Positions 15,860-20,159 of a DNA stretch of 64,000 bases are shown one piece after another; the first letter of the stretch is position 1, and the number at the start of each line of letters is the position of its first letter. The translations under genes were made by a program, and so were the position numbers. The stretch lies in NCBI GenBank assembly GCA_037431425.1, contig GCA_037431425.1_4129.1. One strand, written 5' to 3'. The stretch is from a phage. Under the pieces are notes generated by a model that made no database searches, was not told the DNA's origin, and saw only the letters and a program-made list of their open reading frames with translations.

Positions 15860-18178
15860 ATGATTAACGTAACCAAGCGTAATGGAATGAAAGAACCGTT
15901 ATCATTGGATAAGATCCATCAGATTTTATTTTTCGCTGCTGAAGGTCTAAGTGGTATTTCAGTTTCTGAAATTGAACTTCGTGCACAACTTCAGTTTTAT
16001 GAAGGTATTGAAACCAGTACTATTCATGATATTCTGATTAAAGCAGCCGCAGAACTTATTTCAGAAGATACACCAAATTACCAATATGTTGCTGGTAGAT
16101 TATTAAACTATAGTATTCGTAAGCAAGTATATGGGCAGTATGACCCGATTAAATATGCTGCTCATCTTCAAGAAATGGTTGATATCAAAATATATGATCC
16201 TGAAATTCTTGAAAAATATACTCTTCAAGAAATAGAAGAGCTTGGGCGTTATATCAAACATAAACGTGACGATAAATTTACTTATGTTGCAATGCGACAA
16301 TGGGAAGGAAAATACCTTTACAAAAACCGCGTTACTAAGAAAATTTATGAAACTCCACAAATGGCATATATGACTATTGCCGCAATCATTTTTATGGAGT
16401 ATGATCGTTCCGTTCGTATGTCATATGTTAAAAAGTTTTATGATGCAGTAAGTAACTTTGACATTAGTCTTCCTACACCTATTATGGCTGGTCTACGTAC
16501 AAACACACGTCAGTTTAGCTCTTGTGTAGTTCTAAATGTTGGTGACAGCTTGGATAGTATTGGTTCATCTAACCACGCCATTCTACGTTATATTTCACGT
16601 AAAGCTGGTCTTGGTATTAATATGGGCCGCATTCGTGCCCTAGACTCCGAGATTCGTTCAGGTGATGCAGTACATACTGGATTGATTCCGTTCATTGCAG
16701 CTACTGCTAAAACTGTTAAAAGCTGTTCACAAGGTGGTGTTCGTGGTGGAGCAGCAACTGTTCACTTCCCATTGTGGCATTTGGAATTTGATAACTTGGT
16801 AGTTCTTAAAAACAACAAAGGAACTGAGTTTAACCGTGTACGTCAACTGGACTATTGTTTCCAAGTAAACAAAACTTTGTATCAACGTTTGGTTGATGGA
16901 AAGAATATCACGTTCTTTAGTCCTAATGAAGTTCCTGGGTTATATGATGCATTTTGCTCTGATCAAAAAGAATTTGAAAAGCTATATAAAAAATACGAAT
17001 CTGACCAAAGCATCCGTAAAAAATCCGTACCTGCTGTTGAAGTATTCAGTACTCTAATGACTGAGCGTGCAGAAACTGGTCGCATTTATATTCAAAATAT
17101 TGACCATGCAAACACACACTCAACCTTTATTGAATCAATTGCACCAATTGAACAATCCAACTTGTGCCAAGAAATTGCACTACCATCTGTACCATTTGAT
17201 GATATTAATACTGGTGAAGGTTTGATTAGTCTATGTACTTTGAGTGCAATCAACTGGGGTAACTTTGATCGCCCAGAAGATATGGAAACTGCATGTGATC
17301 TTTCTGTACGTGCACTTGATTCTCTATTGGACTATCAAGACTATCCAGTGGTTCATGCGGAACGTGCAACAAAAATGTACCGCCCGTTGGGTGTTGGTAT
17401 CATTAACTTTGCATACTTCCTAGCCAAACGTGGGTTACGTTATAATGAGGAAGCATTAGAAACAGTTAACGAGTGGGCTGAAGCATGGTCTTATTATCTA
17501 ATTAAATCTTCTGTACAGCTTGCCAAAGAAAAAGGTAAGTGTGAAGGTTTTGACACATTAAAATATGCTAAAGGTATCCTTCCAATTGATACTTATAAAT
17601 CTGATATGGATGAATTAGTAACTAAAGAGCTAAAACAAGATTGGAAATCTTTGCGTGAAGATATCAAACAATATGGTATTCGTAATGCTACAACTATGGC
17701 TCTAATGCCAGCAGAAACAAGTGCACAAATCAGTAACAGTACTAACGGTATTGAAAAACCTCGTTCTCTTGTAACAAAGAAACTATCAAAAGATGGTATT
17801 CTGAAACAAGTAGTTCCTGAAATCAATAAGTTGAAAAACAAATATGATTTACTATGGGAACAAAAAGATAACATTGGCTATCTACAAATTTGTGGTGTTC
17901 TACAAAAATACATTGATCAAAGTATCAGCGTTAATACCAGTTACAATCCAGTACATTTCCCTGATGGAAAGTTACCAATGTCAACTCTCCTAACTGAGCT
18001 TATGTATGCATATAAAGTAGGGCTTAAGAACCTGTACTATCATAATACCAATGACGGTTCGGATGAAGTAGATGTTGAAAAAGTACTCAAAGAAGCATCT
18101 AAACCAGAATCAGGGCAGTTTGTGTTACCTACATTACCTGACTTGGATGAAGGTGATTGTGATAGTTGTAAAATCTAA
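15860..18178 (+). CDS. nrdA: Ribonucleotide reductase class Ia large subunit
   Basis: 772 aa; N-terminal ATP-cone-like segment; C-terminal CDSCKI tail typical of class Ia NrdA. Confidence 0.9.
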   Translation: MINVTKRNGMKEPLSLDKIHQILFFAAEGLSGISVSEIELRAQLQFYEGIETSTIHDILIKAAAELISEDTPNYQYVAGRLLNYSIRKQVYGQYDPIKYAAHLQEMVDIKIYDPEILEKYTLQEIEELGRYIKHKRDDKFTYVAMRQWEGKYLYKNRVTKKIYETPQMAYMTIAAIIFMEYDRSVRMSYVKKFYDAVSNFDISLPTPIMAGLRTNTRQFSSCVVLNVGDSLDSIGSSNHAILRYISRKAGLGINMGRIRALDSEIRSGDAVHTGLIPFIAATAKTVKSCSQGGVRGGAATVHFPLWHLEFDNLVVLKNNKGTEFNRVRQLDYCFQVNKTLYQRLVDGKNITFFSPNEVPGLYDAFCSDQKEFEKLYKKYESDQSIRKKSVPAVEVFSTLMTERAETGRIYIQNIDHANTHSTFIESIAPIEQSNLCQEIALPSVPFDDINTGEGLISLCTLSAINWGNFDRPEDMETACDLSVRALDSLLDYQDYPVVHAERATKMYRPLGVGIINFAYFLAKRGLRYNEEALETVNEWAEAWSYYLIKSSVQLAKEKGKCEGFDTLKYAKGILPIDTYKSDMDELVTKELKQDWKSLREDIKQYGIRNATTMALMPAETSAQISNSTNGIEKPRSLVTKKLSKDGILKQVVPEINKLKNKYDLLWEQKDNIGYLQICGVLQKYIDQSISVNTSYNPVHFPDGKLPMSTLLTELMYAYKVGLKNLYYHNTNDGSDEVDVEKVLKEASKPESGQFVLPTLPDLDEGDCDSCKI

Positions 18179-18183
18179 ATAAA

Positions 18184-18210
18184 AATCCCGCTTCGGCGGG
18201 ATTAATCTTT
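18184..18210 (+). terminator. Rho-independent terminator after nrdA
   Basis: aatcccgc / gcgggatt stem with ttcg tetraloop, then T-rich tract. Confidence 0.7.
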
Positions 18211-18232
18211 CCAAATATTTAAAGGAATATAT

Positions 18233-20159
18233 ATGTCAGTTTTTAAAATTAATGAGAAATCTCACCTAGAAAAAAATATGTTTTTTGATGAAAGTGTTGA
18301 CATTCAACGATTTGAAAGTGTGAAATATTCAGCACTAGAGAAACTAACTGAACAACAGAAAAGTTTCTTCTGGACCCCTGGTGAAGTTGATGTATCCAAG
18401 GATAAAATTGATTTTGCCAACCTTAATGATTCAGAGAAGCACATTTTTACCTCTAACTTGAAACGTCAAATTCTTCTTGATTCTGTACAAGGTCGTGGTC
18501 CAAACCTAATGCTACTACCATATGCATCACTACCTGAATTAGAGAACTTTATTGAGACATGGGCATTCTTTGAAGGTGCTATTCATAGTAAATCATATAC
18601 TCATATTATTCGTAACATTTACCCTAATCCATCTGAAGTGTTTGATACTATGTTGGACATTCCAGAAATCACAGATTGTGCGGCTGATGTGTCTAAGTAT
18701 TACGATGAACTGGATGAGCTAGGTACATGGTATAAAGTACTGGGTGAAGGAACTCACAATGTCAATGGTAAAACTATTGTTGTTGATATGTACGAACTTA
18801 AAAAGAAAATGTGGTTGTGTCTGAATAGTATTAACATCCTTGAGGGTGTGCGTTTTTACGCTAGTTTTGCCTGTTCGTGGGCCTACGCCGAAAACAAGCT
18901 TATGGAAGGTAATGCCAAAATTATTCGTCTAATTTGCCGTTAACTCCATGGCGGCTTTGTACAGTAATGTACATTGAAAAACCTTATATATCGGTGAACA
19001 TCTTAACATGTAATGATGAAGACAATACCGAGATTTAGATAAATAACCCCCATAAATGAGATGAAAATATACATTTGGGGATAGTTATGTGTGATAATAT
19101 TTTTTACGTCTATGTTTGGTATAACCCAATTGACCAGATGCCATTTTATGTTGGTAAAGGTAAGGGGAATCGAGCGTATGATGTACCTGAACATTCTAGA
19201 AATACATATTTTATTCTAAAGTATAATAAAATATTAGAACTTGGAATGGAGCCATATGTTATAATTGAAAAAATTCACTTAGTTAAGACAACGCACTATC
19301 ATATGAATTAGAACTGATTTGAAGTATGGAAAGAACTATATGAAAAATATAAAGATTCCATTCCTAATATCAAAAATTCAGGTTTGAACAAGTATAAGTT
19401 GTCATTTGAAGATAAATTGGATATCATTGATGCTATTCATAATCGTGGTGAAACACAACTAAAGGAAATTGCACTACGATATGGATTGAAGGAGACTATG
19501 ATAGTGTCTATAAATCTTAAACGACAATGGAAAACTATATGGGAATATTATCTATCTAAATCCTAACGACTATCGAAACCACGTAGAAATGCGGAAGGGA
19601 GTAGAGTACTCTCAAGTGAGAGGAAACGTAAGGAATCCAGAAACTGGATTATGATATAGTCTGAACTACTATAGAAATATAGTGCAGTACTTCTAGCTGC
19701 CGAAGTACGGGGGAAGCTTAACGAACTTCCTTGAACATAATGGATGAAAATTTACACTTAGCAGCAACACAAATGATTCTCCGACTACTCAAGAAAGAAG
19801 ATCTAGACTTTGCAAAAATCGCAGAAGAGTGCTATGATGAAGTACTGGAAATGTTTATGTCTGCTATTCGCCAAGAAGAAGCTTGGGCAGATTTCCTCTT
19901 TAAAGATGGTTCTATTATTGGATTGAACTCTGAAATTCTTAAACAGTATGTTCGCTGGATTGGATCTAAGCGTATGACGGCACTTGGTATCAAATGTCCA
20001 TATACTGTATCCAAGAGTAACCCACTACCGTGGACTGAACACTGGGTAAGTGGTAGTTCTGTACAGGTAGCACCACAAGAAACTGAAATCAGTTCTTATA
20101 TCATTGGTGGTATTGTGAATGATATTCAAGAAGATACATTCACACCATTCAAACTATAA
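18233..20159 (+). CDS. nrdB: Ribonucleotide reductase small subunit, interrupted by a group I intron (exons 18233-18940 and 19743-20159)
   Basis: Exon 1 ends ...NAKIIRLICR then TAA; the ORF at 19731 continues DENLHLAATQ...EISSYIIG...FTPFKL, a typical NrdB C-terminus; joined product about 375 aa. Confidence 0.85.
18941..19742 (+). mobile_element. Group I self-splicing intron in nrdB
   Basis: Exon 1 ends in U (18940); gcggc at 18951-18955 can pair with exon gccgu as P1; GACUA (19568-19572) and gauauaguc (19653-19661) resemble P7 strands; intron ends in G (19742); carries a GIY-YIG ORF. Confidence 0.75.
19087..19311 (+). CDS. GIY-YIG homing endonuclease catalytic domain, intron-encoded (possibly truncated)
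   Basis: IFYVYVWYNPIDQMPFYVGKGKGNRAYD matches GIY...YIG...R; ORF stops after about 75 aa; ORF 19384-19566 in another frame may be its displaced C-terminal part. Confidence 0.6.
   Translation: MCDNIFYVYVWYNPIDQMPFYVGKGKGNRAYDVPEHSRNTYFILKYNKILELGMEPYVIIEKIHLVKTTHYHMN

Follow-up and report, generated by a model that had tools for sequence, protein, structure and literature searches.

The window (the whole 64,000-nt stretch of phage DNA analysed here) belongs to an Asteriusvirus-type jumbo coliphage, and is 99.0% identical to phage ph0011 across 25 kb. Its nrdB gene is split in two by a group I intron (Table 1), the boundaries of which were set by alignment to the intronless nrdB of ph0011. The insertion point lies between NrdB codons R236 and D237, and excision of the intron yields an in-frame 374-aa NrdB that is 100% identical to that of ph0011. 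The latter phage lacks exactly the 802 nt in question, and every other Asteriusvirus record is also intronless. Both of the short open reading frames (ORFs) that are the subject of this analysis lie within the intron, as had been proposed at the outset.

Table 1. Coordinates of nrdB, the intron, its RNA helices and the endonuclease remnants in the window
Feature	Position	Strand	Details
nrdB exon 1	18233–18940	+	236 codons, last residues IIRLICR; colinear with intronless ph0011 nrdB
P1	18936–18955	+	exon GCCGU plus intron U (18936–18941) with internal guide sequence GGCGGC (18950–18955)
Group I intron	18941–19742	+	802 nt; IA-like with P7.1/P7.2; 3' terminal G at 19742
P6 5' strand	19032–19041	+	GAUUUAGAUA; partner 19553–19562; compensatory changes in 3 pairs
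Hairpin sequestering the Shine-Dalgarno (SD) sequence	19047–19084	+	CCCCC (19047–19051) with GGGG (19077–19080)
ORF1	19087–19311	+	ATG 19087 (or TTG 19075) to TAG 19309–19311; 74 (78) aa; starts MCDNIFYVYVWYNPIDQMPFYVGKGKGNR
1-nt deletion	19272–19273	+	G of Asp63 codon lost, GAAAAAGATT > GAAAAAATT; -1 frameshift
Stretch homologous to residues 63–78	19273–19319	+	..SLS(stop)DNALSYELELI, including catalytic Glu74; readable in frame 0 only
Nonsense codon	19284–19286	+	Glu67 GAA > TAA, G>T at 19284; ancestral frame
244-nt deletion junction	19314–19326	+	nominal break 19319/19320; intact copy CTGATTATGAAGTA ... CTGATTTGAAGTA; one hybrid copy in window
10-nt deletion	19326–19335	+	one copy of ATGGAAAGAA left; two in tandem in intact gene
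C-terminal remnant	19327–19566	+	endonuclease residues 164–244; second helix-turn-helix-like module; frame 1
ORF2 as listed	19384–19566	+	60 aa, TTG start; part of C-terminal remnant
Catalytic core 3' half	19568–19661	+	100% identity to L052
P7	19568–19573 with 19656–19661	+	core 3' half also holds P7.1 and P7.2
P3 3' strand	19628–19633	+	part of core 3' half
P8	19634–19650	+	part of core 3' half
Intron 3' region	19668–19742	+	P9 19668–19683, P9.1 19687–19708, P9.2 19711–19731, terminal G 19742
nrdB exon 2	19743–20159	+	begins DENLHL, iron-ligand helix

The intron matches the Rfam family Intron_gpI (RF00028) with 34.5 bits (E = 8.9e-7), which is below the gathering score of 50 and concerns the 3' half only; the match is partial since the core is interrupted both by the ORF in L6 and by the P7.1/P7.2 insert. 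The expected U.G pair is present at the 5' splice site, where the final base of exon 1 (U18940) pairs with G18950 in P1, and the 3' end of the intron reads AAUG. Across eight homologous introns, the structure from P1 to P9.2 comprises 82 pairs in 13 helices, with 97% of cells paired and a compensatory change in 23 of the pairs; this value was reached by none of 500 shuffles, and slid controls gave 33–46%. The conserved core helices P3–P8, including the P3/P7 pseudoknot, are all present and supported by covariation. Additionally, P1–P5, P7.1, P7.2, P8 and P9.2 were found independently by RNAalifold.

The closest intact relative is found in L052, a 348-kb phage scaffold with flanks 99.3–99.7% identical to those of the window, where the same intron measures 1056 nt and carries an intact 244-aa endonuclease gene (product P0005). 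Relative to this copy, the ribozyme of the window shows two differences: the base in the P1 loop (C at 18946), which is the sole core substitution, and one additional C in the L6 hairpin at 19047–19084. In the ViennaRNA folds of all eight homologues, the SD sequence of the endonuclease ORF is paired in this hairpin, with the variants CCCC/GGGG, UCCU/AGGA and CUCC/GGAG. The ribozyme is essentially unchanged, and because it is untouched, the intron should still splice, probably giving normal NrdB. The two strands of P6 pair with one another and, therefore, the entire endonuclease ORF is contained in the P6 loop; the last codons of its C-terminal remnant double as the P6 3' strand.

The original prediction described a GIY-YIG ORF of about 75 residues followed by a second, short ORF in a different frame. 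The former is borne out by ORF1, with 74 residues, or 78 if translation begins at the upstream TTG. The second ORF also exists, but it occupies the same frame as ORF1: positions 19075, 19087 and 19384 each leave a remainder of 1 on division by 3, and the two are divided only by in-frame stops, the TAG that terminates ORF1 and a TGA at 19315–19317, such that the second piece is open from 19318 onwards. Alignment to P0005 and to the L052 nucleotide sequence places ORF1 against residues 1–62, followed by a 12-aa frameshifted tail, and the second piece against residues 164–244, with ~97–99% identity. ORF1 differs from L052 by two missense changes, S34P (19186) and R44L (19217), and the C-terminal remnant differs from P0005 by a single residue (F/S at 19358). 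On this comparison, both small ORFs derive from a single endonuclease, ORF1 as its N-terminal and ORF2 as its C-terminal remnant.

The lesions that separate the remnants can be specified base by base. They are a 1-nt deletion, a nonsense change and two further deletions, the longer of which (244 nt) is bounded by the direct repeats CTGATT..TGAAGTA. The net loss is 255 nt (1 + 244 + 10), equivalent to 85 codons (residues 79–163), and it is because the three deletions sum to 85 codons that ORF1 and ORF2 share a frame. The intron is consequently shorter in the window than in the seven intact copies, where it measures 1043–1057 nt. Only 3–4 substitutions distinguish the window from the intact copy; the window-specific changes in the remnants (S34P, R44L and E67 to stop) fall at conserved residues and none is synonymous. 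An earlier model, based on the distant copy in Yersinia phage fHe-Yen9-04, invoked one 254-nt deletion and no in-frame stop; it was replaced after the comparison with L052. The 1-nt deletion abuts a run of A and, taken alone, could be a sequencing error, in which case the other lesions stay. Stretches of 67 and 81 codons have remained free of stops in AT-rich sequence and the frame is restored, which may hint at residual selection, but would be equally expected if the decay were very recent.

Pfam gave sub-threshold matches only for the two fragments and for a hand-stitched reconstruction (LEM-3_GIY-YIG at 13 bits; CENP-B_N and HTH_35), and its thresholds are missed by the intact proteins too. 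As all of these matches fall below threshold, family membership was assigned from a 30-sequence profile searched against the PDB and from a structure model. The profile of the intact family matches 9u75, a solved GIY-YIG protein, with E = 2.9e-16, and the UvrC GIY-YIG domain with E = 8.6e-4, whereas the match to the DNA-binding domain of I-TevI (1i3j) is weak (E = 0.013). An AlphaFold model (pLDDT 81) likewise has 9u75 as its best Foldseek match, with probability 1.0. Invariant positions in the 30-sequence alignment are F6, Y7 and Y9, Y21, V22 and G23, R29, E74 and N92.

The motif had been described as intact, which is true only of the N-terminal half of the catalytic domain: ORF1 retains FYVY (6–9) and FYVG (20–23), corresponding to GIY and YIG, spaced ~10–11 residues apart and lying in the modelled strands 6–12 and 19–25, as well as the family-invariant catalytic Arg29 (in GKGKGNR). 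The codon for the catalytic Glu74 (in SYELELI), which we take to be the equivalent of I-TevI Glu75, lies beyond the -1 frameshift and the TAA, in frame 0, and Asn92 was lost within the 244-nt deletion. In the intact orthologues, the model shows a linker and two three-helix modules following the catalytic domain; NUMOD3 and HTH domains also occur in relatives. The window has lost the first of the HTH modules together with the linker/NUMOD3-like segment, and stops cut off the HTH piece that is left from ORF1. The suggestion that the second ORF represents a DNA-binding part is upheld by its helix-turn-helix-like character and by the weak I-TevI profile match noted above.

Drawing together the lesions, homology, domain content, RNA structure and allele polymorphism, we conclude, with a probability of roughly 90%, that 19087–19566 is a recently decayed pseudogene, derived from a gene for a 244-aa GIY-YIG homing endonuclease and situated in the P6 loop of the nrdB intron. 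This agrees with the first of the two explanations originally offered, namely, an intron that is otherwise functional but whose homing endonuclease gene is decaying, in that the pieces closely resemble an intact orthologue and the ribozyme core is conserved with a well-supported structure. The endonuclease activity has presumably been lost, and the second, C-terminal piece is unlikely to be translated.

The other explanation first put forward was a functional two-part enzyme, in which ORF1 would provide catalysis and ORF2 DNA binding through non-covalent association. Both pieces are still open, and GIY-YIG enzymes are modular, with a linker between the catalytic and DNA-binding domains (PMC2988022). 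Nevertheless, such an enzyme is exceedingly improbable, and this part of the original prediction is not supported: ORF1 stops before the invariant Glu74 in its own frame, that codon being frameshifted and preceded by a nonsense codon; the invariant Asn92 is deleted; and the 85 lost residues take in the first HTH module as well as the linker/NUMOD3-like segment. Moreover, ORF2 has no credible start: it has only a TTG, with an AGG directly adjacent and no properly spaced Shine-Dalgarno sequence, and no ATG or GTG occurs in its frame upstream of the ATG at 19497–19499. All seven of the other copies encode a single protein of 244–245 aa. Equally improbable is a sequencing or assembly artefact, by which the real phage would have one continuous endonuclease ORF that has been split by indel errors. 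The 1-nt deletion does adjoin a homopolymer (GAAAAA/ATT), and in a related metagenomic contig (L060) the same gene is split by one extra T, perhaps through faulty assembly. However, the four lesions in the window are independent and of three kinds, and a G>T nonsense change together with repeat-bounded deletions of 244 and 10 nt is atypical of read errors; were the 1-nt indel alone mended, codon 67 would still be a TAA and a deletion would still shift the frame.

It is also very unlikely that one of the remnants has been domesticated, whereby the C-terminal HTH piece or the N-terminal fragment would be kept for the benefit of the intron or the phage, perhaps by acting in repression or by helping the intron to splice. 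There is a precedent in I-TevI, which is also a transcriptional autorepressor via its DNA-binding domain (PMC2988022), and the 81 stop-free codons and a net deletion that is a multiple of three could be seen in this light. Against this, two in-frame stops lie between ORF1 and the C-terminal piece, which has no credible start; with one substitution in 240 nt relative to the intact copy, openness requires no selection; its 3' end is under constraint anyway, since it forms a P6 strand; and a frame-restoring total has a chance expectation of 1/3. A broader speculation, which we consider decidedly unlikely, is that the helix-turn-helix fragment left by the frame-restoring 255-nt net deletion has been retained and still binds an operator in the intron or the homing site in nrdB, where it would repress or would protect against cleavage, or that the dead intron is mobilized in trans by another phage endonuclease. 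T4 mobE mobilizes the defunct I-TevIII intron in trans. Were the same true here, the synonymous exon polymorphisms clustered around the insertion site, between -3 and +105, would be the footprint of ongoing conversion. A 257-aa ORF between nrdA and nrdB in Yen9-04, UE-S1 and L054 was considered as a mobE-like free-standing endonuclease, and was set aside as it gave no informative Pfam, PHROG or PDB match.

The closest parallel to the decayed gene is the T4 nrdB intron with I-TevIII (intact in RB3), which shares with the window the host gene, a group IA-type ribozyme and an ORF looped out of the core. I-TevIII is inactive in T4 through a large deletion (PMC2988022; also the T4 annotation) and, as in the window, the intron persists after a large internal deletion killed its endonuclease gene (PMC2988022). 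The two introns differ in their insertion sites, that of T4 following RFYVSFA, ~22 codons upstream of R236/D237, and in their nucleases, I-TevIII being an HNH enzyme; thus, the window intron is analogous rather than orthologous to that of T4. Indeed, the metagenomic phage L058 carries both nrdB introns, at the T4 site and the window site, in tandem, so the two are separate elements. In architecture, the window family resembles I-TevI of the T4 td intron, with an N-terminal GIY-YIG domain, a linker and C-terminal helix-turn-helix DNA-binding modules; the td intron also has a P6-loop ORF, the 3' end of which overlaps a core pairing, and an SD-sequestering hairpin (PMC2988022). In contrast to the td system, the target gene is another one and the window gene is dead; additionally, the family lacks an evident zinc finger, and its catalytic domain is nearer to the LEM-3-like/PD-T4-3-type GIY-YIG domains than to Pfam PF01541.

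Homologous introns at the identical nrdB position, with homologous endonucleases, are found in fHe-Yen9-04 (g298/g299/g300) and in L016, L052, L054, L056, L058 and L059; unlike that of the window, the copies in fHe-Yen9-04 and its metagenomic relatives are intact. The product of g299 (245 aa) is ~65% identical to the window remnants, and P0005 is nearly identical to them. GenBank labels such copies merely as two nrdB fragments and a hypothetical protein, and our search of the literature found no description of an nrdB intron of the window type. Empty (ph0011), intact (L052) and decayed (window) alleles occur together in phages that are at least 99% identical. The decayed allele is represented by one sequence, the 255-nt net deletion being seen in the window copy alone: an exact search of IMG/VR for the deletion junction gave no match and so no independent decayed copy, and a contig search with a 17-mer from the intron core matched only unrelated introns in bacterial metagenome-assembled genomes. 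The synonymous polymorphisms of nrdB exon 2 are concentrated in its first 105 nt, and the exon polymorphisms form a mosaic: those at -3 and +21 go with the intron, those from +39 to +90 are specific to the window and resemble UE-S1, and those at +102 and +105 are L052-specific. We considered using them to tell intron gain from loss, but the mosaic pattern gave no resolution.

Based on its family membership, and on the constant place of its gene in one intron, the intact enzyme is likely to act in homing: it would cut intronless nrdB alleles, whereupon repair would copy the intron in. In the lineage of the window, the gene would have been inactivated recently by the 1-nt deletion, the nonsense change and the repeat-mediated deletions of 244 and 10 nt, leaving a 74-aa N-terminal fragment devoid of the catalytic Glu and Asn and a presumably untranslatable 81-codon C-terminal helix-turn-helix remnant. 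With its ribozyme untouched, the intron would continue to splice, but would no longer home by means of its own enzyme. The coexistence of empty, intact and decayed alleles is that of the classical homing cycle, in which an intron invades, its endonuclease decays and the element is finally lost. Goddard and Burt, in 1999, reportedly formulated the cycle as invasion, fixation, endonuclease degeneration and loss; the window is an instance of this model, with no difference in kind.

The locus provides a natural case of homing endonuclease decay resolved to the base, with deletions that are traceable to short direct repeats. Annotation benefits as well, since the 'split nrdB plus hypothetical protein' of fHe-Yen9-04 and related jumbo phages can be recognized as a GIY-YIG endonuclease gene carried by a group I intron, and the intact members of the family are a possible source of a new nrdB-specific nuclease. 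The pattern itself was set decades ago by T4 nrdB and I-TevIII. Overall, the decay of the endonuclease gene within the nrdB intron is unremarkable, being a step that selfish elements of this kind are expected to pass through, and changes no concept.

The window belongs to a jumbo coliphage of Asteriusvirus type; its bases 1-25000 are 99.0% identical, over 97% of their length, to Escherichia phage ph0011 (OP557969). On alignment, nrdB is an uninterrupted gene of 1125 nt in ph0011, UE-S1, 121Q and 31 other Asteriusvirus records; in the window it holds a further 802 nt, between ...TTTGCCGT and GATGAAAAT.... The insertion point separates R236 from D237 in the iron-ligand helix (...ICR/DENLHL), and the spliced product, of 374 residues, is 100% identical to NrdB of ph0011.

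Features of the window nrdB locus, with the lesions read from a base-by-base alignment to L052, a near-identical phage scaffold
Feature	Position	Detail
nrdA	15860-18178	upstream of nrdB and of the endonuclease remnant
nrdB exon 1	18233-18940	
insert (group I intron)	18941-19742	802 nt
missense	19186, 19217, 19358	S34P, R44L, F/S
1-nt deletion	19272/19273	G lost (GAAAAAGATT > GAAAAAATT), codon Asp63; -1 frameshift
nonsense	19284 (TAA 19284-19286)	G>T, Glu67 GAA to TAA in ancestral frame
244-nt deletion	about 19319/19320	ends within imperfect direct repeat CTGATT(A)TGAAGTA
10-nt deletion	copy retained at 19326-19335	ATGGAAAGAA present once instead of twice in tandem
nrdB exon 2	19743-20159	

The insert carries a GIY-YIG-like reading frame (ORF1), from an ATG at 19087 (or a TTG at 19075) to the TAG at 19309-19311, whose product starts MCDNIFYVYVWYNPIDQMPFYVGKGKGNR, and a second ORF of 60 residues at 19384-19566, both as originally predicted. 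They had been assigned to different frames, wrongly: both are congruent to 1 mod 3, split by that TAG and a TGA at 19315-19317, and the second open stretch begins at 19318, not 19384.

With the stitched translation of the two pieces as query, tblastn matched g299 of Yersinia phage fHe-Yen9-04, a 245-residue 'hypothetical protein' flanked by genes of 711 and 429 nt, both labelled nrdB beta subunit and equal in size to the window exons. Residues 5-64 of g299 align to 19102-19281, and residues 165-243 to 19327-19560 at 66% identity; the roughly 100 residues between these blocks have no window counterpart. Scanning IMG/VR for exact matches to a 19-mer from the conserved core gave a closer copy with an intact ORF (L016; 82-84% nucleotide identity), and a protein search with that ORF retrieved P0005, a 244-residue endonuclease whose N-terminal 62 residues show two differences from ORF1, and whose C-terminal 81 residues show one from the second piece. 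P0005 is encoded on L052, an ENA metagenome scaffold of 348,427 bp with the same gene order as the window (nrdA, nrdB exon 1, endonuclease, nrdB exon 2, small ORFs and a MazG-like gene) and flanks that are 99.7% identical upstream and 99.3% identical downstream.

Pfam thresholds are reached neither by the window fragments nor by the intact proteins; alignment, profile and model evidence nevertheless places the intact protein in the GIY-YIG family. The invariant columns of a 30-sequence homologue alignment (F6, Y7, Y9, Y21, V22, G23, K24, G25, R29, E74, I78 and N92) correspond to the GIY/YIG/Arg/Glu/Asn signature of these nucleases. The 30-sequence profile matches the 'GIY-YIG domain-containing protein' structure of PD-T4-3 (9u75; E = 2.9e-16), the UvrC GIY-YIG domain (8.6e-4) and, over positions 166-239, the I-TevI DNA-binding domain (1i3j; E = 0.013); more distant family members have NUMOD3, LEM-3-like GIY-YIG and HTH Pfam domains. 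In an AlphaFold2 model of P0005 (mean pLDDT 81), residues 1-95 are predicted to form an N-terminal beta-beta-alpha-beta-alpha domain, followed by a poorly ordered linker and by modules of three helices each at 127-173 and 184-243; the model's confident Foldseek matches are solely to the PD-T4-3 GIY-YIG domain (probability 1.0). The catalytic motif had been considered intact in ORF1, which does keep GIY, YIG and Arg29; however, it stops before Glu74 in its own frame, and Asn92 is deleted.

The deletions sum to 255 nt, or 85 codons (residues 79-163), and the remnants therefore lie in one frame; 19273-19319 still codes ..DNALSYELELI (residues 68-78), in frame 0 only. The intron is 802 nt long versus 1043-1057 nt in seven intact copies. 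What has gone is the linker and the first helix-turn-helix module; the last module survives as the second piece, in keeping with its proposed identity as a DNA-binding part. S34 and R44 are conserved across all homologues, so S34P and R44L are derived in the window. Since only 3-4 substitutions in all separate remnant and intact gene, the decay is recent, which also explains why the remnants are still stop-free.

A sequencing artefact could account for the 1-nt deletion; it would leave the nonsense change and the repeat-bounded 244-nt and 10-nt deletions unexplained, and we consider it highly improbable. We give equally little credence to a functional two-part enzyme of ORF1 and the second piece, the other option originally raised: Asn92 and 85 residues are lost, Glu74 is out of frame and the second piece lacks a start. 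Indeed, it has no ATG or GTG before 19497, and an AGG directly abuts its TTG (19384), which makes its independent translation unlikely. A domesticated helix-turn-helix fragment, scarcely more probable than either, is required by nothing in the data. The preferred reading, that the homing endonuclease gene is decaying while the intron is otherwise intact, is borne out by the lesions relative to L052 and by the near-identical intron core.

The Rfam Intron_gpI match is sub-threshold (34.5 bits versus a gathering score of 50; E = 8.9e-7). We aligned the ORF-less cores of eight introns (window, L052, L016, L059, L054, L056, Yen9-04 and L058, the L-numbers being related contigs or phage records), all of which occupy the identical nrdB position. 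RNAalifold recovered P1, P2, P3, P4, P5, P7.1, P7.2, P8 and P9.2, and P6, the P7 pseudoknot, P9 and P9.1 were added in a hand-drawn structure, in which 97.0% of 629 cells are paired and compensatory change is seen in 23 of the 82 pairs; not one shuffle in 500 attains any measure, and slid versions pair only 33-46%. P6 (19032-19041 with 19553-19562) encloses the entire ORF; thus, the gene lies within the P6 loop, and its final codons double as the P6 3' strand. Upstream of the endonuclease ATG, a hairpin (19047-19084) pairs the Shine-Dalgarno GGGG(A); the eight copies all do so, through stems that covary (CCCC/GGGG, UCCU/AGGA and CUCC/GGAG). Compared with the L052 core, the window core has a single base change in the P1 loop (18946) and an additional C in the C-run at 19047-19051, and the 3' half (19567-19742) is identical, so it is likely that the window intron still splices.

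Three alleles occur in phages that share at least 99% identity in the region: empty (ph0011), intron with intact gene (L052) and intron with decayed gene (window). These three differ at nine positions, all synonymous, within ~110 nt of the intron site (18938 and 19763-19847); elsewhere, polymorphism is roughly 1 per 100-300 nt. Exon positions -3 and +21 go with the presence of the intron, +39, +42, +48, +78 and +90 are window-specific and equal to intronless UE-S1, and +102 and +105 are specific to L052. The cluster suggests repeated conversion or recombination around the homing site, compatible with gain or loss.

Several further features of the operon were seen in relatives. In L060 (Logan SRR22590157_1471503; 406-1153), one extra T (GGGTTATAC) splits the intron endonuclease into overlapping ORFs of 59 and 196 residues, reflecting either early decay that arose independently or misassembly of this 1.8-kb contig. 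The nrdA beside the intron-bearing nrdB of L056 (Logan SRR14295904_2427; 1-582) has a 1098-residue product with Intein_splicing and LAGLIDADG_3 Pfam matches; hence, the operon hosts inteins besides introns in this phage group. A 257-258-residue ORF, resembling T4 mobE in position, lies between nrdA and nrdB in L001 (1358-2131; fHe-Yen9-04 g297), UE-S1 (UES1_018) and L054 (1-635), whereas the window (18179-18232) and ph0011 lack it; it matches nothing in Pfam or PDB, its sole match being PHROG 3532, of unassigned function. In Escherichia phage CMSTMSU (L031, MH494197; 480-1599), the annotation breaks nrdA and nrdB into several short pieces, probably through frameshift errors rather than introns, as the record is flagged UNVERIFIED_ORG.

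The nearest parallel is nrdB of T4: its group IA intron harbours I-TevIII, 'inactive on account of a large deletion', of which RB3 has a functional orthologue (PMC2988022). The two introns are, however, separate elements: that of T4 lies after ...RFYVSFA, about 22 codons upstream of the window site, and I-TevIII is an HNH enzyme, whereas the decayed gene of the window intron is of the GIY-YIG family. Both occur in the nrdB of L058 (Logan SRR25011088_3538; 1-2830), where intron 1 has an HNH_3 ORF (409-1137) at the T4 position, intron 2 is of GIY-YIG type at the window position, and a micro-exon of 22-23 codons (about 1294-1362) lies between them. In layout and regulation, the likeness is instead to T4 td/I-TevI: a GIY-YIG enzyme with helix-turn-helix modules, an ORF in the P6 loop whose final codons supply the P6 3' strand, and a hairpin pairing the Shine-Dalgarno, as described for T4 introns (PMC2988022).

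The literature searched yielded no description of the window-type nrdB intron, and the Yen9-04 copy appears in GenBank as a hypothetical protein with an nrdB fragment on either side. Overall, the window locus is a tidy, unsurprising example of the homing cycle, a further case of a well-known kind, and the main value of the finding lies in annotation.
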